Assembly: GCA_965205865.1 (NCBI GenBank)
Contig: CBDBHR010000028.1
Location: forward strand, 563,656-627,655
Source of the DNA: a bacterium
Lineage (GTDB): Bacteria; SAR324; NAC60-12
Reading direction: 5' to 3'
Length of the DNA: 64,000 nt
The translations under genes and the position numbers were made by a program. The notes below the pieces were generated by a model that did not search any database, was not told the DNA's origin, and was given only the letters and a program-made list of their open reading frames with translations. Below, piece by piece: positions 215 to 60,226 of the stretch (position 1 is the stretch's first letter; every line of letters starts with the position of its first letter).

Positions 215-415
215 GCCGATCATTAGCCACACATTACTTGGGGGAATATTCAAAACTACAAGAATATAATCGGGCATGGTATGCCCTTCTGCCGGATCAA
301 GCCCCTTGCGTTTACAAAAATTACGCAAGATGGGATCCATCTGTTGGCGTTTGGCTCCATTAAATTGTTTTGCCCGATTTTTCGGAACAAACACAATATG
401 ATACTTGCGTATCCA
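215..415 (-). pseudogene. IS200/IS605-family TnpA (Y1 transposase) remnant, N- and C-terminally truncated
   Basis: Minus-strand translation LSQFEWIRKYHIVFVPKNRAKQFNGAKRQQMDPILRNFCKRKGLDPAEGHTMPDYILVVLNIPP matches the TnpA core (YHIV-VPK-R...IPPK); no start codon; a 26-bp palindrome lies next to it at 425-470. Confidence 0.4.
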
Positions 416-2783: not shown

Positions 2784-3249
2784 CTGAAAGAATGCGCCTC
2801 AGAAGAACTCGAAAACTATTTTTGAGAAAAATGACACTGTTCCAAATGAAGTTCTAAAAAGAGAATTTCTCACGAAGAAAGGATGGAAAGAATATCATTT
2901 GCAACAAAATTTAAATCGTTCTGAAAAAGCTTCTTTTCAAAAACTACACGCCATCAATGCTTCTCTTGCTTTATAAATCCATCTTGAGCAAGTTGTCTGC
3001 CCGTAACATCAGCTAATTTACACTATCAATTTGTTCACGAAATGCTGCTTCGCTAAATCGGAGAGCAAGCGAATCCCGAGAGATTCCCAAACCGAAATTG
3101 ATAACCGCCGAAACAACCCATTCTCCGTCTAGCAGTATTATTCCAGTTGCTCTGGCCCGAAATTCTTCGTTACCACTGAAACGACCTGTTGTCACCAACA
3201 TGCCAATCGACCCTTTTCGCTCTCCTTTAGAAGCATTTGAGTCATAAGT

Positions 3250-3483
3250 AACCTGAGTTCGACATAAATCTTCAATAATATGAGTATCCTAGTGTATATG
3301 TCATCCTCGCGAAACTTGTCCTCGCGAAAGCGGGGAGCGGGGATCCGGATTTCAGTCTGGCTGTATACCTCCGGATTCCTTCCCTGCGTACGCAGGGATC
3401 TCGCAGGAATGACAAGGTTTCTCTAAGATATGAAGATTCCATAACATATTGAATTTATTAAATTCTTATCTCGAACTCAGGTT
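3250..3483 (+). mobile_element. MITE-A copy 1 (~234-bp non-autonomous element with 15-bp terminal inverted repeats)
   Basis: Termini aacctgagttcgaca ... tctcgaactcaggtt are inverted repeats; the core gtcatcctcgcgaaacttgtcctcgcgaaagcggggagc recurs at 30557, 42581 and (reverse complement) 60124. Confidence 0.6.
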
Positions 3484-4080
3484 AAGTAGTCATCCTCTGG
3501 AGTGTTGGTGCCTGTTCTCAGCAAAATTCACCCTGTGAAGTGTTGGGATTTTGCAAATAGATGGTGTTTTCCGGTGCGTTTCCCCCGGTTTTCAGGGTAA
3601 CAACACTCAAGAGGGAGACTATCAGTTTTTTTGAAGTGACAAAAAAGTTATATTATCCAGTCAGGACAAAATTTCCCAATTCACTTTGCTCTCTCTTGCC
3701 TTACCCGGTGACGAGAGGATCGATCAGCGTCAACAAAGGCAGATTGGATTTTGACATGCCGGAGCAAACGATTGACAAGGAAAAATTGATTGTAGCATTG
3801 AACCGCTTGATTTCGGAAAACCATTGTGTGGAAACTCAATGGAACCACGAACCAGAACTGTAAGCCATTCAAAACTTGGAGGTGGCACCATGTCCGCGCA
3901 ACCGCCAAGAGGGCAAGGAAGAGTTCGTCTGGTCCATGTCAAGGGGTTAGATTTGCAATCCTGCGGATGCGCCTAACTTTCCAGAGCCGGCGAAATCGGC
4001 AAGTTTCTTCTCAGAAAAATAGAAAAGAAAGGGAAACAGAATCGTCGGGTAACAATTGTCTTTGATGAAAGACTGATCCT

Positions 4081-4917: not shown

Positions 4918-5226
4918 AAATATCTCCTGTAATGTAACGAAAAATTTGAGAGTCGATTCAACAAAAAGGTTGTTTTCTTGTGACAAAAACAACTGCTTAC
5001 CCCTGTGAAATAGATCACTCTTGCAAGATTCGCAACCTTTTTCTATAGTACTGCAAATAATCATTTCAGAAAGTTCGCGTGGGCGGGATGCTCCCTCTAC
5101 TCATCCAATTATCTGAAAGTCGATAGAAACTTTTATGCATATCTGGTTACCATGCAGGAAAAAATCATTTGCACGATCAGTGGATTGAAATGTACGGGAA
5201 TGAATCGTGATGATTTCATGTCAATA

Positions 5227-5397
5227 AGGAATGAAATTTAAATAAGTTAGAAGTATGGATACGCAAAATTAGGGTACACGTAACAGCAGGCATAAAACAG
5301 TAGAGTTGGGATGCGAAGCGGTGTACATGTCCCCCAATTTTGCTCACACCATTGGAAGAATTACAGGTTATTTAAGGTTTGTTCCTAAACATAAACA
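5227..5397 (+). repeat. Repeat family C copy 1 (~170 bp), immediately upstream of the hydrolase gene
   Basis: Near-identical to the reverse complement of 57246-57405; ends 18 bp before the start codon at 5416. Confidence 0.6.
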
Positions 5398-17744: not shown

Positions 17745-18022
17745 ACTAGTTCCAGTCCGGAATGAGAACGGACAAACGCTTCAACTCGGCGACGACCACC
17801 TGCGCTTGGGAGATAGGGGTGTCGCCGACCTGAAGTATCTGCACTCGACCTCGGGAGACCGGGTACTTCTCAGCCCAAGCACCGCCGGGCAGGGCAAATT
17901 TTTGAGGATCATTTGAGTAAACTACTGAGAGTGAAAGCCAGGGCGATACTCACGGAAGCGCTGGAATTGGAGTCCTCAGTATGAGCATTGATCAATTTTA
18001 TTTGAATCTCAAAACGGCGCAT

Positions 18023-20897: not shown

Positions 20898-22038
20898 TTA
20901 CACAAGAGCTTCATCAAAAACGAGGACACCACGTTTGAAACCGCCCTTGAGTAACTCATCATAGGCTTCGTTGATCTGTTCCAACCGAAAACGTCTGGAA
21001 ATGAGTTCGTCGAGCATGAGCTGACCGGAACGGTAGAGATCAAGAAGTACCGGGAATTGGCGGCGGGGATCAATGGAGCCATACAATGATCCAAAGATTT
21101 TCTTTTCCATTCTGTGCAGGTCCAGACCGGCATAACGCGTGTAGGACCCTTTCGGAGAAACACCAACGATTACCACGGAACCGCCGCGACGAGCAGCCTC
21201 AAAAGCAGCTTCCTGGGTGGCGGACAATCCAATCGCCTCAAAAGCAAAGTCAACGCCTCGGCCTCCGGTTAATTCTTGAATCTGATCCAGGGCGTCATCT
21301 CCGGCAGCAACGGCATGGGTAGCTCCGAATTGACGAGCGATTTCAAATTTCGCTGGATCGTTGTCGACGGCAATAATCGGATATGCGTTACAGAGTCGCG
21401 CACCTTGCAGGATATTTAGACCAACCCCTCCACAACCATATACTGCCACGCTTTCCCCGGGGCGAATGTTAACAGTGTTGAGAGCAGCACCCACTCCGGT
21501 AGTTACTGCGCAACCGACAAGGGCAGCGACTTCCATGGACTGCGCAACCGACAAGGGCAGCGACTTCCATGGAAATGTCTTCGTCGAACGGAACAAGGGC
21601 TTCCTGTGGAGCAATGGCTTTTTCGGCAAAAGTGGATTGGGTGCTGAATTGACGCACGATCTCACCGTTGAGACGCAAGCGTGTGGAACCATCAGGCATG
21701 GTACCGTTGCGCCACGGCCAAAATGTCTCGCAGAGAGTAGGATTGGTGTGCCTGCAATAGAAGCAGGTGCTACATGACGGCGCCCAATTGATAATTACAC
21801 GCTGCCCAGGTTGAACACTGGTGACTCCTGCACCGACTTCCTCGACAATGCCGGCACCTTCATGACCCAAAATAACTGGTAAAGGACGCGACAAATCACC
21901 GGAAACAAAGTGCCAGTCACTGTGGCAAGTACCCGCAGCACCCATGCGCACTCGTACCTCGCCGGGTTCAGGGGGTAACAATTCGACCTCTTCAATTTGG
22001 AAAGGACCTCCAACTTGATGTAAAACTGCAGCTTTCAT
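20898..22038 (-). pseudogene. Zn-dependent alcohol dehydrogenase (MDR family) disrupted by a 34-bp tandem duplication
   Basis: The unit tgcgcaaccgacaagggcagcgacttccatgga occurs at 21507-21539 and again at 21541-21573; MEVAALVGCAV is encoded twice and the frame is broken; N-terminal ORF 21469-22038, C-terminal ORF 20898-21692. Confidence 0.6.
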
Positions 22039-25605: not shown

Positions 25606-26510
25606 ATGAACAATGCTACAGAATTTCCATCCGCTTTCAGTGAACCCAAGAGACGTAACATCCTGGTGGATTTCCTGATCAGGCTGGCTACAGAGAAACC
25701 CCTGGGGACCTTTGGTGGGATAATCGTTTTGATCTTTATTTTGGTAGCGATCTTTGCCGACATACTGGCACCTTATCCCCATGTCGAGGTCAACATATTG
25801 GACAGGATGCAAGAGCCCTCCGACCGGTATCTCCTGGGGACTGACCAGTTGGGGCGAGACCTCCTCGGCCGTTTGATTTTCGGGGCGCAAATTTCCTTGA
25901 CCGTCGGTCTGGCGGCGACAGCGCTCAATGTGCTCATTGCTGTCTTGATCGGCAGCATTTCCGGATTCTTTGGAGGAAAAGTGGACCTGGCGGTGCAGCG
26001 CTTCGTCGATGCCTGGATGGCCTTTCCGGGACTGCTTCTCTTGTTAACGATCATGTCCCTCGTGGGGCGGGGTCTCCCCCAGATCATCGTGGTCCTGGGG
26101 GTCACTGGAGTAATCGGAAGCTCGAGAATCGTCCGCAGCGCCGTGATCGGTGTCAAAGAGAATGTCTATTTTCAGGCGGCAGTGGCGATTGGCTGCTCTC
26201 AAGCAAGAATCCTGATCCGCCATGCGCTGCCCAATATTGCCGCCCCGTCATCATCATTTTCACCATTAACATCGGGGCCGTGATAATCAGCGAGGCTGCG
26301 TTGAGCTTCCTTGGATTCGGGTTGCCCGTCAAGGTACCCAGCTGGGGAGGAATGCTCAGCCGGGAAGGGCGTGAGTTCATGGAGATGGCCCCCCGACTGG
26401 CGCTCTGGCCGGGGCTTTGCCTGACGATTGTCGTTTACAGTCTCAACATGTTCGGTGACGCTCTCAGGGACCTGCTTGACCCAAGACTACGGGGTGGGGA
26501 AGGTAGCTAG
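25606..26510 (+). pseudogene. Orphan DppC/OppC-like permease paralog with a 1-bp frameshift
   Basis: ~80 % identical to 45642-46613; frame breaks near 26245 (gccccgtcatcatcatt versus gcgccgatcatcatcatc in the intact copy); no adjacent SBP or DppB. Confidence 0.65.
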
Positions 26511-28347
26511 ACCCTAGCCGAAAAGGGTTTCGAAAATAATAAATGTAACCAATTTGATTCTATTTGATTCTCTATTTGATTCAATATGACGAGAAAACGA
26601 TTTTTTTGTTTTTTATTCGCCCACAGCACAGTTTTTATAGGGAAAAAATCTTTTTTGGACATACTTTCCTCGCTCCTGCTCATATTTCACACTCCCCCAT
26701 TGAATATTCAGGCCGCTTGTTTGAGTTGTCTTTTTTTCAACTCAATCATTTTGCAAAAATTATAGGTTAATGCTTTTTCCAGCAACTCTGCCCGAACGTT
26801 TTCAATCCCTCTGCGCATAACTTGTCCGAAATGGAAACGATGCTTAAGATGAAACATCAACGACTCTGCAGCAGATCTTCCATTTCGTGATTCCAAATAG
26901 ATTTCACTTTCCCATTCTTCAATCGGGGTCATCTTTTTTCCCTTTGCCCCACTAATACTAAAAACCTTAACGCCTTTGCCCATCCACTTTTCTCTGATCG
27001 CCTGATTGGCATATCCATCATCAAGGCTCACTTCAGAGGGAATGGTGATGGTGCATCGCAAATGTTCAACAAGGGCAGGGTCGAGTTGCCCTGAATCAGC
27101 AGCATTGCCCTCCGGAGTAATTAACACGGAAATAAAACCATTTCCGCTCCTTCCTAATTGAGGCTTATATCCGATAAGCGCTTCTCGATCTCCCTTTTGA
27201 ATATAAGCCGAGCTCTGATCGGAAAGACTCAATACTTTCTCAGTAGAAGGAACCTTCTTTTCTTCAAAAACTCTTTGATGACAGTAGATGATTACCCGTT
27301 GCAAATTAGAAATATCTTCATTCATCATTTCAATGAGGCGAATCAAACGCGTTTTCCGAGAAGGGGGGAGAAGAGCTTTTTGGGCACGGATATCCACCTT
27401 TGCCATTTCTTTTAAAAATTTCCCATGAGCGCTTTGAGCTTTCTTCAATAGGGTTTTGTAATGTTTTTTTCGCTTCGTTTTACTGTCCTTTTTACCTGTC
27501 TCAAAAGCCATCATCTTAGAGAGCTTATTCATCTCCTTGATGAGGAAATCAAAATTTCTTTCACTGATCTCAGCGATTCCAAATGTATCAAGGGAACGCC
27601 CTCGATGGTAGCTTCGCTCCACGAGACGAGTCAATATCGACGAATCAGTAGGCCAAGCTGTATTTCCTTTTACAGAGGTGCTATCCAGTTTTAAAATATC
27701 AAAATCGTCCAACTCTTCATCGAGAACCATTCGAATTTGAGCATCGAAAATAAACTGTCTGCTCTCGTTGCTGACAGCATTGACATTATCAAGGATTGTA
27801 CTCGCTCCCGGCATTTTCAATCCACGGTTGAGCAGAAGCAGATGCAGTGTGATTGACTCTGAAAGAAATATTTGGGCCGTTTGGGATTTGATACTTCCTA
27901 AATATCCCCGAATCATCATAAAAAGGTAGACTAAAAAAGCCGACATCCGAGGACACCCTATTTCCAGCCTCAGTTCTTCCGGCTTCAATTCCTCATCTTC
28001 TACGGGAAGATGAGGAAGCCATGGATTCCGGGCTTCCTGCCATCGTTTATCCTCTAAACGCTCTTTCTTTTTATTTCTTGCGTATTTCTCCAAATCCTGT
28101 TCAATTTTGTCCAATATCTCCGGCTCTCGCTCAGACAATTGATCAAGTTCTGATAAGAAATTTTCAAATTCTGTATCAGGAGCGCTTAAAAAAAGATGTT
28201 TTTCTGCTCGAATGAATGGTTTCATTTTGGGTGCCATAATTCTTAATATTGAAGTTATTCACAGTTATTTCAATGAATTATGGCACTTTCTAACCTCAAG
28301 TTTAAAGATATAATTCTAAAAAATACCTTTTCGGCTAGGATCTAGCT
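26504..28347. mobile_element. IS element (~1.84 kb) with 23-bp terminal inverted repeats
   Basis: tagctagaccctagccgaaaagg (26504-26526) versus the reverse complement of ccttttcggctaggatctagcta (28325-28347), one mismatch; encloses the transposase gene. Confidence 0.6.
26708..28237 (-). CDS. DDE transposase (IS4/IS1634-like superfamily; family uncertain)
   Basis: 509 aa; LDSTSVKGNTAWPTDSSIL is a DDE_Tnp_1-type motif. Confidence 0.55.
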   Translation of the reverse strand: MAPKMKPFIRAEKHLFLSAPDTEFENFLSELDQLSEREPEILDKIEQDLEKYARNKKKERLEDKRWQEARNPWLPHLPVEDEELKPEELRLEIGCPRMSAFLVYLFMMIRGYLGSIKSQTAQIFLSESITLHLLLLNRGLKMPGASTILDNVNAVSNESRQFIFDAQIRMVLDEELDDFDILKLDSTSVKGNTAWPTDSSILTRLVERSYHRGRSLDTFGIAEISERNFDFLIKEMNKLSKMMAFETGKKDSKTKRKKHYKTLLKKAQSAHGKFLKEMAKVDIRAQKALLPPSRKTRLIRLIEMMNEDISNLQRVIIYCHQRVFEEKKVPSTEKVLSLSDQSSAYIQKGDREALIGYKPQLGRSGNGFISVLITPEGNAADSGQLDPALVEHLRCTITIPSEVSLDDGYANQAIREKWMGKGVKVFSISGAKGKKMTPIEEWESEIYLESRNGRSAAESLMFHLKHRFHFGQVMRRGIENVRAELLEKALTYNFCKMIELKKRQLKQAA

Positions 28348-28437
28348 ACGGTATAGCGAAAGTGAAACGCAAATGAGGTCTCCTGGACCGGCTCATTTCC
28401 CCTTTCAACTGGTAAGCGGGTAAAACGGGATATTTGA

Positions 28438-30460: not shown

Positions 30461-30556
30461 GCTGTCTCCATATATGCAAAAAAAAGGACAACTCGTAGTA
30501 TAGCAAACCAAGGAATTATTTACATATTAATAAAAGAGCGACACAATAGTGAATAT

Positions 30557-30643
30557 GTCATCCTCGCGAAACTTGTCCCCGCGAAAGCGGGGAGCGGGGA
30601 TCCGGATTTCAGTCTGGCTGCATATCTCCGGATTCCTGCTTTC
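30557..30643 (+). repeat. MITE-A copy 2, left part (split by the IS insertion)
   Basis: gtcatcctcgcgaaacttgtccccgcgaaagcggggagcggggatccggatttcagtctggctgcatatctccggattcctgc. Confidence 0.55.
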
Positions 30644-32380
30644 CAGGCTGTTGCAGATTTTATTTGCTTTTTCCAGGTGGATTTTGCTACACTTTTCATA
30701 GTCTAGTATCTGGTTTGAGTCCACTTTTCATATAACCATAGTAAAAATGGATTTCTATTATGGGTTTTCTGAGTAATGATCGTTCCACCCTCCAATTATC
30801 CACCACCGATTTGAACCACTTGATCCCGGATAACGATAAATGCCGTTTTGTGGTAGATTTCGTTTCCCGCTTGGATTTATCCTCGCTTTATGGCTCCTAC
30901 AAATCGCAAGGGGGGGATGCCTATGATCCGGCGATTCTGTTAGCGACCTGGTTTTATGCCTACAGTGAAGGCATTGAGAGTAGTCGTGTTTTGGAGAAAC
31001 TTTGTAAACGCGATCTTTGTTATATCTATGTTTCAGCGCATCTGACCCCCGACCACTGTGCCTTGAGCCGGTTCCGTCGTCGTCATTTGCAACGCCTGCC
31101 CTTCTATTTTGAGCAATTGATTCAAATGGCCATTGATCAGCAGGTCTCCGGTTTCGCTGAAATAAACCTTGACGGTTCGAAGCTGAAAACCTCTGCCAGT
31201 AAGAAACGCTCGAAAAATGCAGAACAATTAGAACGTCTTTTAGAAAAAACGCGTCAATCGATCGCCTCCCCTCTAAATTGCGAGTCTGAAGATCATCAAG
31301 GCGATGAAGAAGACTTAGCCGCCCTTCGTGGCGAAAAAGCCCGTCTTGAGCAATTCGAAGCAACGATTCTCCAATCTCAGCAAGATCTTCAAGCGCGTCA
31401 GCAAACCCTCAAACCCGAACATCGGGATGGCCATAAGATCAATCTGACCGATGCCGACGCACGCATGATGCCCTCGATTAACACACCCGGTTATAATGTG
31501 CAGGCAGCCGTCGATCGTGCCACTCATCTGATTGTGGCCGCTGAGGTGGTCTGCGAAGCCAACGATACCCAACAATTTGCGCCGATGCATCAACAGGCAG
31601 AAACCCACCTTCCCGAAGATCGGCAACGTCGTTATAATATGGATGCCGGTTATCATAGTTTTGAGCAACTCAACTATATCGAGCAGCATCAGATTGATGC
31701 CGTCATTGCCGACCCGCAACCGCAAAATAGAGCCAACCCTCTCCAGCCGACCCCCCTGGAAGAATTACTGCAAAACGATCGAAAGCTCGAACGTTCTGAT
31801 TTTTTCTTCGATGCAAAAAATGATGTCTATCAGTGTCCCAATGGGCAACAGCTCTCCTTTCAGCGTAACTTCAAGCGGGGCCAGGCCCAAGGGAGCACCT
31901 ATCAGGCCCCATCCTGTGAAGATTGTCCCCTCGCTCAGCGGTGTCTGCCCCCGAAGAATCGCTCGCGACTCAAACAGATCCATCGCCAAGAGCGCGAGCC
32001 CTACGCCGAAGCCATGCGCAATAAATTGCAAACCCCAGAAGCCAAACAACGACTCAAAACGCGCATGAGTACCGTCGAACCGGTCTTCGGCAACTTGAAG
32101 GCCAATCTCGGTTTTACCTCATTTCGATTTCGAGGGCAGAGACAAGTCAAAGGCGAATTTATGCTCATGGCCATTGCTCACAACCTCAATATTCTCTATC
32201 GCCTCCTTGAGGTGATTCGATTGATTCGCTTTCTCTACGCTTCATACGCAAAGGTTTATATGATTCTAACAATTTTAAAGATCAAAAACCATTTCATCAT
32301 TATGATGAGAATTGGGATCATACCCCGTTCTCACTGATTGTATGACCCGTTATGCAGGCAAAAAAATCTGCAACAGCCTG
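30644..32380 (+). mobile_element. IS1182-family IS (1737 bp) inserted into MITE-A, with an 18-bp TIR and a TTTC target-site duplication
   Basis: TIR caggctgttgcagatttt (30644-30661) versus the reverse complement of aaaatctgcaacagcctg (32363-32380); tttc at 30640-30643 and 32381-32384. Confidence 0.65.
30760..32337 (+). CDS. IS1182/IS5-superfamily DDE transposase
   Basis: 525 aa; N-terminal DUF772-like segment (DPAILLATWFYAYSEGIESSRVLE) and a C-terminal DDE region. Confidence 0.7.
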   Translation: MGFLSNDRSTLQLSTTDLNHLIPDNDKCRFVVDFVSRLDLSSLYGSYKSQGGDAYDPAILLATWFYAYSEGIESSRVLEKLCKRDLCYIYVSAHLTPDHCALSRFRRRHLQRLPFYFEQLIQMAIDQQVSGFAEINLDGSKLKTSASKKRSKNAEQLERLLEKTRQSIASPLNCESEDHQGDEEDLAALRGEKARLEQFEATILQSQQDLQARQQTLKPEHRDGHKINLTDADARMMPSINTPGYNVQAAVDRATHLIVAAEVVCEANDTQQFAPMHQQAETHLPEDRQRRYNMDAGYHSFEQLNYIEQHQIDAVIADPQPQNRANPLQPTPLEELLQNDRKLERSDFFFDAKNDVYQCPNGQQLSFQRNFKRGQAQGSTYQAPSCEDCPLAQRCLPPKNRSRLKQIHRQEREPYAEAMRNKLQTPEAKQRLKTRMSTVEPVFGNLKANLGFTSFRFRGQRQVKGEFMLMAIAHNLNILYRLLEVIRLIRFLYASYAKVYMILTILKIKNHFIIMMRIGIIPRSH

Positions 32381-32384
32381 TTTC

Positions 32385-32465
32385 GTAGGAATGACAAGGT
32401 TTCTCTAAGATATGAATATTTCATAACATATTGAATTTATTAAATTCTTATCTCGAACTCAGGTT
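32385..32465 (+). repeat. MITE-A copy 2, right part with the terminal inverted repeat
   Basis: gtaggaatgacaaggtttctctaagatatgaatatttcataacatattgaatttattaaattcttatctcgaactcaggtt. Confidence 0.55.
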
Positions 32466-32709
32466 AATTGAAGTGCGAACTGTGGGATTGAATACTGGAG
32501 GCGCTACGACCAGGACGATGGGGCGTTTGGCATCCAGGATGGAGAGATGCGACGCTTTGTCGTCTCTGCCTACGACCCGGCGCATTGGAAAAGACAGGGG
32601 AAAGAGATATTTGAGGTCGGGGAATGGCCCTTTTTATTGCGCAAATCCAAACATTCATAAAACCATATATGCCATCATCGCCTGCAACAACTGTCAGTTG
32701 GCTTCTTGG

Positions 32710-42580: not shown

Positions 42581-42626
42581 CTTGTCCTCGCAAACTTGTC
42601 CCCGCGAAAGCGGGGAGCGGGGATGC
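42581..42626. repeat. MITE-A core fragment immediately upstream of the SBP start codon
   Basis: cttgtcctcgcaaacttgtccccgcgaaagcggggagcggggatgc; overlaps the spurious 5' extension of the long ORF. Confidence 0.4.
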
Positions 42627-45486: not shown

Positions 45487-45619
45487 AGTCCCGGAGGGAC
45501 GAAAGGAAGTAGCTCGCCAGATCGAAGAAGTGTCGTCCCTCTGGGACTAGCTGAGGAGGAGGGGGGTTCCTTTCCCAGCAATGAATCGCTGGGCTATTCC
45601 CTTTCGTCCCTCCGGGACT
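45487..45619. repeat. Nested inverted-repeat structure (~133 bp) in the permease B-C intergenic region
   Basis: agtcccggagggacgaaagg ... cctttcgtccctccgggact, a perfect 20-bp inverted repeat, plus an inner hairpin cccagcaatgaatcgctggg. Confidence 0.4.
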
Positions 45620-53622: not shown

Positions 53623-53900
53623 TCAAAATATTCTCTCGTCAATTTCTCGTTACGCACCAAACTTTCAAATTTGATGCTCAACTTCCCAGAAAACTCACTC
53701 AATTGATAAAAGAAACCGGTCATGGTGCCATGCATACGCTTGAACTTCCCAAAAGGAATAAAACGACTGACACTGAAATTCTTAAATACGTGAATGATCA
53801 AGACTGCGTCCTCGTCACAAAAGATCAGGATTTTGTCAATTCCTTCCTTGTCTCTCGCCATCCTGATAAGTCATTACCACCGGCAGAGCCGGTGGCTTGA
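53623..53900 (+). pseudogene. DUF5615 PIN-like toxin remnant (no start codon; 3' end encoded by IR-L)
   Basis: ...TFKFDAQLPRKLTQLIKETGHGAMHT...TDTEILKYVNDQDCVLVTKDQDF matches DUF5615 from N- to C-terminus, but the expected ATG is replaced (ACT TTC) and there is an upstream in-frame stop at 53620; the last codons (PAEPVA*) lie inside the inverted repeat. Confidence 0.4.
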
Positions 53901-54434
53901 AAAGGCCCCCAGGATGGGGGCAAAACGTGCTCGTATTCGTAAAACGTGCTCGTGAACGTGAACGAAAGGGGTTATGCTAGATCATGAAAAATTAGATGTT
54001 TACCAATGTTCCATCGAATTTTTAGCATTGAGTGTCCAAATCATTGAGACATTGCTCAGAGGAAACTCTGCCTTAGTTGATCAACTGAAGCGTGCCTCAT
54101 GGTCGATTCCTCTCAATATTGCCGAGGGGTGTGGCAAAACGTCTCTTTCCGACAAGCATCGATTCTACGCGATTGCTCGAGGATCCTCTATGGAATGTGG
54201 CGCGATTCTCGATGTTCTGAAAGTTTTGAAGATCGTTCAGTCTCCATTATTCGATAAAGGAAAACAGTTACTACATCGCATTGTCGCTATGTTAACAAAA
54301 ATGTGTCAACGATCTCACTAATCGTTCACGAGCACGAGCACGGCTCACGGACACGTATACGTTACTCATGTCTGACCGGCAAAGCCTATTAGGTTCGCAC
54401 CAGCAGAGCTGGTGGTTTAATGAATTCAATTACT
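53866..54434 (+). repeat. IR-L: ~569-bp arm of a large inverted duplication, carrying a four-helix-bundle gene inside its own 21-bp stem
   Basis: ~97 % identical to the reverse complement of 59533-60092; internal stem cgtgctcgtgaacgtgaacga (53945-53965) pairs with tcgttcacgagcacgagcacgg (54323-54343) around the ORF. Confidence 0.7.
53974..54321 (+). CDS. Four-helix-bundle protein (23S rRNA intervening-sequence protein / Avd family, PF05635/TIGR02436-like)
   Basis: 115 aa; ...SIPLNIAEGCGKTS... contains the family NIAEG motif; a second copy differing at 6 residues is at 59642-59989. Confidence 0.65.
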   Translation: MLDHEKLDVYQCSIEFLALSVQIIETLLRGNSALVDQLKRASWSIPLNIAEGCGKTSLSDKHRFYAIARGSSMECGAILDVLKVLKIVQSPLFDKGKQLLHRIVAMLTKMCQRSH

Positions 54435-54941
54435 GCTTGTTTCGACAGGAAATATCAAAAATCGGGAGTTAGAAAAGATATTTTCAACAAAGCCGGATCA
54501 AATCATCCGTTTATTTCAAGAATATCATTTCGTTGAATTGAGCAAAGAGTTTCTTCTCATTCATGAGTAAGCCACCTTCACAAGTACACACACGCAACAT
54601 TGTATTACAACATGTCATCTCGACGCCTGGAGAGATCTAAAGATTCCTCGCCTTTGGTTCGGAGTGATACAACAACGGATGTGCTACAATGTCATGTATT
54701 AGTAAAGCCAAAAGCTATTTCGCGTCAGCGACTCGCTATTGTCTAAAAGGAAATTTGTAATATTTTAGCGCGCTTCTCAATAATACTTGACATTGACTGC
54801 AGGGATAGCGGATAGTGCGACAGTTTTTTGTTCCTCAGTCGGAGAGCGAAGGTTACCAAAACCGTGGTGAGCGCCTCGAGGTGGCGCCTGTTCATGCTGC
54901 TCCCAAACCTGCAATATCGTATAGGAAGGATCGAGTTTAAA

Positions 54942-57245: not shown

Positions 57246-57405
57246 TAAGGAACAAACCTTGAATAACCTGTAATTCTTCCAATGGCGTGAGCAAAATTGG
57301 GGGACATGTACAGCGGCATCCCAACTCTACTGTTTTATGCCTGCTGTTACCTGTACCCTAATTTTGCGTATCCATACTTCTAACTTATTTAAATTTCATT
57401 CCTAA
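57246..57405 (-). repeat. Repeat family C copy 2, ~140 bp upstream of the AKR start
   Basis: Reverse complement is near-identical to 5227-5397. Confidence 0.6.
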
Positions 57406-57676
57406 GATCTCGTAAGTCATTGAAAAATTAAGTCTGTGTTGCGCACTTTGTCATTCCCGCGAAGCATGTCCCCCTGAAAGAGAGGAACGAGAATATGAAA
57501 AGAGGCAAGGGGGATTTCCCAAAACGTTATCCTATCAAACGTCTCAAGGGATAACCAGCATAAATATTGATCTAATTGACTCGGCAACAGAAATGGATAA
57601 ATTTTAAGGGCACCTTTCATTTTCCAGTTTACAGTTCCCTAAGTTGAGCGATTCGTAATAAAAAAAGCTCCCAACC

Positions 57677-59156
57677 TTGGGAAAAATGTGTTATATTTCA
57701 GTGGTTAAAATAAAAAAATTCACAAAATCTAACACAACCCAACAGGTAGAGAGCTTTATGGAAAAAAATATAACAGTTCAGGATAAAAAGAAACAGATAA
57801 TTGATGCCATTCAGCCAACCGATGAACACTTGACAAGTCGTGCCGGATTGGCCTTGTTTGCCCAGTATCTGCAAAGCATTCGGCTGATGCCGATCATCGA
57901 AAGGTTGTTTGGTTCGATGCGTAAAAATAAAAAAGGAATTGCTGTCTCTGATTTTTTTGCGCAGATCCTCTGTTTTTTCATGGACGGCAGCAGCCGTCAT
58001 CTCAGTTGGTTCGATCACCTCAAAAGGGGCGAGGGTTATGCCGCCTTGCTGTCATGCAGTGAGCAAGACCTTGCCTCCTCGCATGCCGTGAAAAGATTTT
58101 TTGGAAAGTTCTCTTTTGTACGAGTCTACCTGTTTCGTCATCTGCTGCAGATACTGTTTATCTGGAGACTGAAGAAGACTTGTCCAACGGTGATTGTGTT
58201 GGGTCTGGATTCGATGGTACTTGATAATGATGATGCCCTGAAACGCCATGGTGTCCAGCCGACTTACAAGATGGTCAAAGGATTTCATCCCCTGCAGATG
58301 AATTGGGGTCGTTATATGGTTGACGCAGTTTTTCGCGGAGGTAGCAAACATTCGAATCACGGGAAAACTGTTCAGAATATGCTGGTTCATATCGTGAAAA
58401 GGATTCGCCGCCAATACCGAGATGATGTACCAATCATGGTGCGCATGGACACCGGTTTTTTTGACGAAAAAATCTTTGAAACCTGTGAACGACTGAACAT
58501 CGGTTAGCTGAAGCGGAGGAAAGTCCTATGCCAATGTGAGGAATGCTGCGGAAGAAGCCACTGACTGGCAGACCTTCACTTCATCGGGCAAGAAGGAGAT
58601 CTGGCAGTACACCGAGTTTAAGAGCCAGCAGGGGACATGGAAGAAGGCTCGTCGCACGATCTACAGCCGCTTGATTGAACACGATAGCCAACTCTCTTTG
58701 CCGGGTTTGGATCATGATGGCGTGATCATTACGAACCTTGGTATGGGAGAGGCCATTGATGGCCAACTCAGCCAAGCCGCTGAAGAAAAGCGCATCGATG
58801 CTCATAGCATCCTTGGCTCGTACCACGGACGGGGAAAGGATGAACTGGCCAACCGGGCGCTGAAAAACTTTGGTCATCAACAACTTCCCTTCAAGGACTT
58901 CATTTCCAATACCGCATGGTACTATCTGATGCTGCTTGGCAATAACCTCTTCGAATCCTTCAAAGAAGATGTCAGCAAGCCAGTGATTGCGGTAACGATG
59001 TATGCTGATACCTTCCGGCGCCAGTTTCTTGATACGGCAGGCAAACTGCTTCGTCATGCCGGAAAACTGATCTTGAAAATACCAAAAAAGACCTTTGAGC
59101 GCTTGCAATTGGACCAACTATTTGCCACCTGCCAGCACGCATTGGCGCCAATCTGA
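57677..59156 (+). pseudogene. IS1380-family transposase split by a frameshift (ORFs 57677-58507 and 58536-59156)
   Basis: N-terminal HLTSRAGLALFAQYLQSI... and the C-terminal DDE part are in different frames; IS1380 transposases are normally a single ORF; IS termini not identified. Confidence 0.6.
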
Positions 59157-59398
59157 TCAACGGGTTTCGCTTCAATTAAAAAACAAAAACATTAAAGTTT
59201 AAGGGGATAAGTGCGTCCAAAACATGAGAAATGAAGACCTTCCACATCTGAAAACAGCATTTTGATGCTCATTCTCACTCAAACATCCATGGATTTGATG
59301 ATCAAAATCTGATTTCAGAATGATTGCCTTTCTCAGGCAAAAAAATCATCTTGAAAATCTGATCCTTTTTTAGAATCGCTCAATTTGGGAGTTCCTCT

Positions 59399-59466: not shown

Positions 59467-59532
59467 AACAAAGGCGGCAAACTGTAAACTACTTTTTTCT
59501 ATTTTTGAAGGGTCCCATTTTAAGCAATATTA

Positions 59533-60092
59533 ATTGAATTCATTAAACCACCAGCTCTGCTGGTGCGAACCTAATAGGCTTTGCCGGTCAGGCATGAGTA
59601 ACGTATACGTGTCCGTGAGCCGTGCTCGTGCTCGTGAACGATTAGTGAGATCGTTGACACATTTTTGTTAACATAGCGACAATGCGATGTAGCAACTGTT
59701 TTCCTTTATCGAATATTGGAGACTGAATGATCTTCAAAACTTTCAGAACATCGAGAATCGCACCACATTCCATAGAGGATCCTCGAGCAATCGCGTAGAA
59801 TCGCTGCTTGTCGGAAAGAGACGTTTTGCCACACCCCTCGGCAATATTGAGAGGAATCAACCATGAGGCGCGCTTCAGTTGATCAACTAAGGCAGAGTTT
59901 TCTCTGGGCAATGTCTCAATGATTTGGACACTCAATGCTAAAAATTCGATGGAACATTGGTAAACATCTAATTTTTCATGATCTAGCATAACCTCTTTCG
60001 TTCACGTTCACGAGCACGTTTTACGAATACGAGCACGTTTTGCCCCCATCCTGGGGGCCTTTTCAAGCCACCGGCACTGCCGCTGGTGATGA
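59533..60092 (-). repeat. IR-R: ~560-bp arm of the large inverted duplication
   Basis: Reverse complement matches 53866-54434 with a few mismatches. Confidence 0.7.
59642..59989 (-). CDS. Four-helix-bundle protein (23S rRNA IVS protein / Avd family), second copy
   Basis: 115 aa; 109/115 identical to the 53974-54321 product. Confidence 0.65.
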   Translation of the reverse strand: MLDHEKLDVYQCSIEFLALSVQIIETLPRENSALVDQLKRASWLIPLNIAEGCGKTSLSDKQRFYAIARGSSMECGAILDVLKVLKIIQSPIFDKGKQLLHRIVAMLTKMCQRSH

Positions 60093-60123
60093 CTTCCTAT
60101 TCTTTCAAAATCATCCTGTGAAC

Positions 60124-60226
60124 GTCATCGCTCCCTGCTCCCCGCTTTCGCGAGGACAAGTTTCGCGAGGATGACATATAAACTAGGATACTCAAATTAT
60201 TGAAGATTTATGTCGAACTCGGGTTA
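60124..60226 (-). repeat. MITE-A partial copy (TIR-proximal ~100 bp), truncated at the IR-R junction
   Basis: Reverse complement aacccgagttcgacataaatcttcaataatttgagtatcctagtttatatgtcatcctcgcgaaacttgtcctcgcgaaagcggggagc matches the left end of copy 1 (3250-3345). Confidence 0.5.

Follow-up and report, generated by a model that had tools for sequence, protein, structure and literature searches.

A short repeat upstream of a hydrolase gene and an aldo/keto reductase gene is very probably a MITE

The Correia elements (CREE/NEMIS) of Neisseria are repeats of about 100–155 bp with long terminal inverted repeats (TIRs), which form a hairpin over their whole length and are often found just upstream of genes. 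They duplicate a 2-bp TA target and carry documented promoters as well as an IHF site, and we know of no cognate transposase identified for them. Within the IS5 family, the IS1031, ISL2 and IS427 groups (ISfinder) fit a duplication of 2–3 bp at TWA or TNA targets. Canonical Harbinger elements, which are relatives of the IS5 family, have 3-bp target-site duplications (TSDs) (PMC12730594). In more general terms, a prokaryotic MITE is defined as an element of less than 500 bp with TIRs and flanking direct repeats that is AT-rich, lies in intergenic DNA and forms a stable stem-loop (PMC10969869).

Here we describe a repeat that is present in two copies in the 64,000-nt stretch of DNA that was analyzed (the window), at 5228–5385 on the plus strand (copy 1) and at 57249–57402 on the minus strand (copy 2), the two being inverted relative to each other. 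The repeat is very probably a MITE, i.e., a non-autonomous DNA transposon of 154–158 bp that encodes nothing. The element is a previously undescribed family of a well-known kind and as such is ordinary mobile DNA. The two copies are alike at 150 of 154 aligned bases (97%), with one 4-nt indel in addition, and have a 51-nt identical block in common, for which the number of matches expected in shuffled sequence is 0. An earlier note on this DNA had described a pair of near-identical inverted copies, which the alignment and the identical stretch bear out, and had given their length as about 170 bp, in place of which we measure cores of 158 bp for copy 1 and 154 bp for copy 2. Copy 1 had been extended to 5397, but its similarity to copy 2 ceases at 5388, and the gap from its end to the hydrolase ATG (5416) is 30 nt (27 nt if the TSD is counted) rather than 18 bp. 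The distance from copy 2 to the reductase ATG (57107), put previously at about 140 bp, is measured at 141 nt. The right end of both window copies points to the downstream gene, so the observation that both lie 5' of a gene in the same relative orientation holds for this pair.

The left TIR of copy 1 occupies 5228–5246 on the plus strand (19 nt, GGAATGAAATTTAAATAAG) and does not vary among the four full copies that we recovered, and the right TIR occupies 5367–5385 on the same strand (19 nt, with the reverse complement GGAACAAACCTTAAATAAC). The two 19-nt TIRs are imperfect, being complementary at 15 of 19 positions, and an inverted-repeat search places the arms at 5227–5245 and 5368–5386 with 79% complementarity; across the four full copies the TIRs are unvarying save for one base in copy 2. 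An inner inverted repeat (5263–5343, plus strand) with 20-nt arms at 5263–5282 and 5324–5343 (85% complementarity) forms the central stem of a whole-length foldback, and it is because of the TIRs and this inner repeat together that the element folds from end to end as one long hairpin. The sense strand folds at −41.8 kcal/mol in copy 1 (z = −3.4) and at −45.6 kcal/mol in copy 2 (z = −3.3), and the antisense strand is more stable than the sense (z = −5.3). Good folding on both strands is the behavior of a DNA palindrome and does not point to an RNA specifically. The longest ORF in the element is 43 aa, and a query with the concatenated six-frame translation, which would also catch spurious ORFs called in other copies, returned no match among 5.8 billion protein sequences. 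The GC content of the element is 39–41%, compared to about 38–57% across 2-kb bins of the window.

The TSDs at the four full copies are TAA, TTA, TTA and TAA, which is to say 3 bp of the form TWA in 4 of 4 cases. At copy 1 the TAA at 5225–5227 recurs at 5386–5388, and the hydrolase site in the window reads CATGTCAA-TAA-[element]-TAA-ACATAAACAG. At copy 2, in the minus-strand reading, TTA is found at the left end (57403–57405) and again at the right end (57246–57248). A 2-bp TA duplication of the IS630 type was also considered and was rejected, as the ends of the element would then have to vary between copies.

The strongest evidence for the MITE reading is the existence of precise empty sites in related strains. 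The hydrolase site is empty in three assemblies (L001, L063 and L064), the first of which is a 210-kb contig reached by an exact look-up of the hydrolase protein (L027 denotes the same contig). In L001 the site reads CATGTCAACAAATATAAACAG, with the element absent and two SNPs, and in L063 and L064 it reads CATGTCAATAAAC (CATGTCAA-TAA-AC), with a clean single TAA. The reductase site is empty in six assemblies (L027 and L065–L069) and holds a single TTA; in L065, L068 and L069 it reads GATC-TTA-GAATTG, which matches the window exactly once the element and one TTA are taken out. Direct comparison with the window gives about 96–99% identity for L001 and L027 (about 98–99% for the strain of L001), and the proteins encoded downstream in the empty-site strains are identical or nearly so (clusters of at least 90%). 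Precise empty sites with a single TAA or TTA mean that both window copies are insertions that duplicated a 3-bp target, and these insertions are polymorphic among closely related strains. We infer that both are recent gains of this strain's lineage and not losses elsewhere. Among short-read contigs of another sample, one stops inside the element (L002) and one stops 29 nt away (L003), as is expected since multi-copy repeats interrupt short-read assembly.

The lineage was sampled beyond the window by way of transposase proteins present in multiple copies and of clusters of orthologues, and this sampling added two full copies, both on related metagenome contigs. In all, about 0.4 Mb of lineage DNA yielded four full copies, those of the window included, and one copy interrupted by an IS. 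Copy 3 (L049:21219–21376, with 98% identity and a TTA duplication) has landed precisely on the stop codon (TAA) of a fragmentary permease gene, and its left end is 80 nt from the start of the next gene. Copy 4 (L065:1773–1927, with 95% identity and a TAA duplication) lies in a divergent intergenic region, with its left end 190 nt from the start of an antitoxin gene and its right end 672 nt from the start of a binding-protein gene; L027 keeps the left flank of this locus but differs in its downstream DNA and gives no clean empty site for copy 4. The fifth copy, in OZ242383.1 (L009), is broken 42 nt in by an IS of the IS256 family and comes from a genome with only about 70–80% identity in shared genes. 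A scan of genome and metagenome contigs with the left TIR 19-mer gave chance matches, with the exception of L009 and two Microcoleus loci.

With these additional copies it is also possible to revisit the sense orientation that the window pair had seemed to fix. The end nearest the closest gene start is the right end in two copies (those of the window) and the left end in two (L049 and L065), which is the random orientation that the earlier note itself had named as speaking against a shared regulatory element. The common orientation of the window pair is a half-the-time outcome for two draws. The position upstream of two genes appears to reflect a preference for AT-rich intergenic targets and not a function.

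In terms of mechanism, the 19-nt TIRs would be recognized by a DDE transposase acting in trans, which would excise or copy the element and place it in T-A/T-A trinucleotides of AT-rich DNA between genes, where repair of the staggered cut would leave 3 bp duplicated. The 3-bp TWA target points to a transposase of the IS5/PIF-Harbinger type; the IS5 family and PIF/Harbinger elements, with Tourist-like MITEs, have a short TWA/TNA target of which 2–3 bp are duplicated, as in the element described here. In the ORF1 search, degenerate copies of the IS5 family (DUF4096 plus DDE_Tnp_1_2) turned up commonly in the lineage. One of the IS5-family elements is internally deleted (L059:4906–5311) and has a left end, AGAACCTGTTTGAAATAAGTT (L059/L058), that matches the left end of the MITE at 14 of 21 positions, AAATAAGTT included, while its own bilateral TIR differs. 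The outer TIR bases of this IS5-family element are AGAACCTGTTTGAAA, whereas those of the MITE are GGAATGAAATTTAAA, and its flanks look like TA with no clean 3-bp repeat. Judged by these ends, it would be at best a relative and not the parent.

No autonomous IS whose TIRs match those of the element turned up in the window, in about 0.4 Mb of related contigs or in the plasmid collection, in which blastn returned nothing significant, and a relaxed TIR pattern gave only unpaired chance matches in viral contigs. As the parent IS was not found, the element is not typed as a type I or type II MITE. The IS256, IS1182, IS1380 and ISNCY-like elements that are present have ends that differ from those of the MITE. 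We also considered as parent the IS256-family IS that stands beside the 42-nt match in L009, and rejected it on the alignment of three copies of this IS, in which the IS starts after the MITE sequence; it is therefore a later insertion into a MITE copy.

The window also contains several other repeats and ISs. Elements of about 236 bp with 39-nt TIRs make up a second MITE-like family, found at 3249–3485 and also at 30547–30637, 32383–32467, 60132–60226 and 42585–42624. The halves at 30.5–32.5 kb flank an IS1182-family transposase gene (30760–32337), and either an IS1182-family IS inserted into a copy of the 236-bp family or the short element derives from the IS. An IS1380-family IS at 57638–59390, about 235 nt from copy 2, has a frameshifted transposase (ORFs 57677–58507 and 58536–59156), and an intact 465-aa copy is present at another site in the sister strain (L001:3427–5178), where window positions 395–399 are duplicated. 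The reductase gene, copy 2 and the IS1380 element are bracketed by the arms of a 595-nt inverted repeat (53868–54462 and 59501–60095, 95% complementary), each of which carries a gene for a 115-aa 23S-rRNA-IVP (four-helix-bundle) protein, and the sister strain shows extra tandem copies. About 90 nt at 17895–17981 are a relic of the N-terminus of an IS256-family transposase; a nearly full IS like this relic is found in L023 in a similar neighborhood, with oligopeptide permease genes followed by DUF2442/DUF4160 genes. An ISNCY-like IS at 26503–28349 has 24-nt TIRs (GTAGCTAGACCCTAGCCGAAAAGG) and a 509-aa transposase that matches the ISNCY model below the cut-off, with an identical protein on at least three other contigs. 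Finally, a 34-nt unit is repeated in tandem without a mismatch at 21505–21572, within minus-strand ORFs.

The insertions could conceivably have a secondary effect on the expression of the neighboring genes, for example the hydrolase gene, where copy 1 separates a weak promoter-like site from the ribosome-binding site. In a further reading the MITE has been co-opted as well, and copy 1 would form part of the transcript as a hairpin leader of 158 nt, altering the stability or translation of the hydrolase mRNA as Correia elements have been shown to do in Neisseria. Copy 1 is indeed placed between a weak promoter-like site (5185–5214, about 11 nt upstream of the copy) and the hydrolase ATG, its hairpin is strong, and MITEs that carry promoters or IHF sites or undergo RNase processing are on record (PMC10969869). 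We nevertheless consider such a co-option unlikely, given that a pattern search found no sigma-70-like promoter or intrinsic terminator inside copy 1 or copy 2, that promoter-like matches near the copies are as frequent in shuffled sequence, and that the insertions are strain-specific and show no sign of selection for them. In addition, two other strains have a 200-nt insertion, unrelated to the MITE and with inverted ends that are imperfect, upstream of this hydrolase gene and 3 nt from the copy 1 target (L061:9771–9970 and L062:9771–9970), which suggests a site that tolerates insertions, not one where a function was selected. No other copies of this 200-nt insertion were found in the sampled DNA.

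The two Microcoleus loci returned by the 19-mer scan bear on a wider version of this idea. They belong to a 98-bp MITE in a Microcoleus sp. MAG (L006:4287–4384 and L012:462–559), the left terminus of which is the same as that of the window element over 21 nt (GGAATGAAATTTAAATAAGTT). The terminus recurs in inverted form at the opposite end of this MITE, and its TSDs are TAA and TTA (TWA in 2 of 2), as in the window element, whereas its length (98 bp vs. 158 bp), its unrelated interior and its cyanobacterial host set it apart. Since the 21-nt terminus and the target are common to both, the transposase specificity is present in at least two phyla, and the terminus provides a handle for finding the transposase responsible. 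A more far-reaching proposal is that the shared terminus and target mark an undescribed, horizontally transferred IS group whose MITEs are still active in the lineage, and that the hydrolase copy in turn serves as a strain-specific hairpin leader altering expression; taken as a whole, we regard this combination as decidedly improbable.

The repeat had originally been proposed as a shared leader, a riboswitch or a small RNA, or else as something transposed, and it is the last of these that stands. It is very hard to sustain that the hydrolase and the aldo/keto reductase have in common a conserved RNA, either a cis-regulatory one (leader or riboswitch) or the product of an sRNA gene, even though both window copies turn the same end to the gene that they precede and the fold is more stable than that of shuffled sequences. 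The same genes are without the element upstream in three (hydrolase) and six (reductase) sister-strain assemblies, which means that neither gene has it as a conserved component of its control region. The TIRs and target-site duplications, the antisense strand that folds better still, as a DNA palindrome would, and the opposite end that copies 3 and 4 present to the closest gene start all argue against an RNA. The differences of copy 2 from copy 1 do include a C-to-G change and a G-to-C change that pair in the minimum-energy fold of copy 2 itself, and this pair of changes is a single event adjoining an indel. RNAalifold predicts 50 consensus pairs over the four full copies, of which none shows a compensatory change, with minimal power in copies that are 95–98% identical. 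The Rfam check that had been suggested was run with Rfam 15 and matched no RNA family to the element: nothing reached the gathering thresholds, and at E ≤ 10 there was only a chance match to a snoRNA (E-value 6.6). The sole Rfam match in the window is the Acido-Lenti-1 RNA motif (RF01687, 47.7 bits, full length) at 45574–45619, between two peptide-permease genes.

There is next to no likelihood that the repeat is a REP/BIME-type palindrome dispersed through a RAYT (Y1) transposase, or that it owes its spread to recombination in place of DDE transposition, be it cut-and-paste or copy-and-paste. Although the element is palindromic, a Y1_Tnp fragment is present in the lineage (L058) and a short hairpin like the inner stem stands alone at L047:21301–21354, REPs are 20–40 nt long and lack a target duplication, whereas this element has 158 bp, defined TIRs, a 3-bp duplication at every full copy and single-copy empty sites at the window loci. 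The lone hairpin in L047 (54 nt, GGTTGAAAATCAGGGGACACGTAAC...GTACATGTCCCCCAATTTTCAACC) resembles the inner stem of the MITE and may be a related short palindromic repeat.

Under the MITE reading, annotation should list the repeat among the mobile elements, and there is no call to follow it up as a candidate riboswitch or sRNA. It represents insertion polymorphism between strains 96–99% identical in an IS-laden uncultured lineage, which is useful in strain typing and explains the breaks of short-read assemblies at these sites.

Relative to described systems, the element resembles the Correia elements in size, long TIRs, hairpin and gene-upstream position (see also PMC10969869), and differs from them in having no sequence similarity, in having no detectable promoter-like site inside where Correia elements carry promoters, and in its target, which is 3 bp (TAA/TTA) in place of the 2-bp TA of Correia elements. 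The comparison with the prokaryotic MITEs reviewed in PMC10969869 (Chunjie of Geobacter, QMITE1/2 of Coxiella and MITEAba12) is closer, although the sequence is unrelated to any named MITE family that was checked and the 3-bp TWA duplication differs from those quoted there, such as the 7–9 bp of QMITE2. Apart from the parent IS, every structural criterion of that description has its counterpart in the element, which like those MITEs is non-coding and less than 500 bp long, has TIRs and a flanking target duplication, and is AT-rich, intergenic and capable of forming a stable stem-loop. As with other prokaryotic MITEs, it exists in multiple near-identical copies and shows insertion polymorphism between strains.
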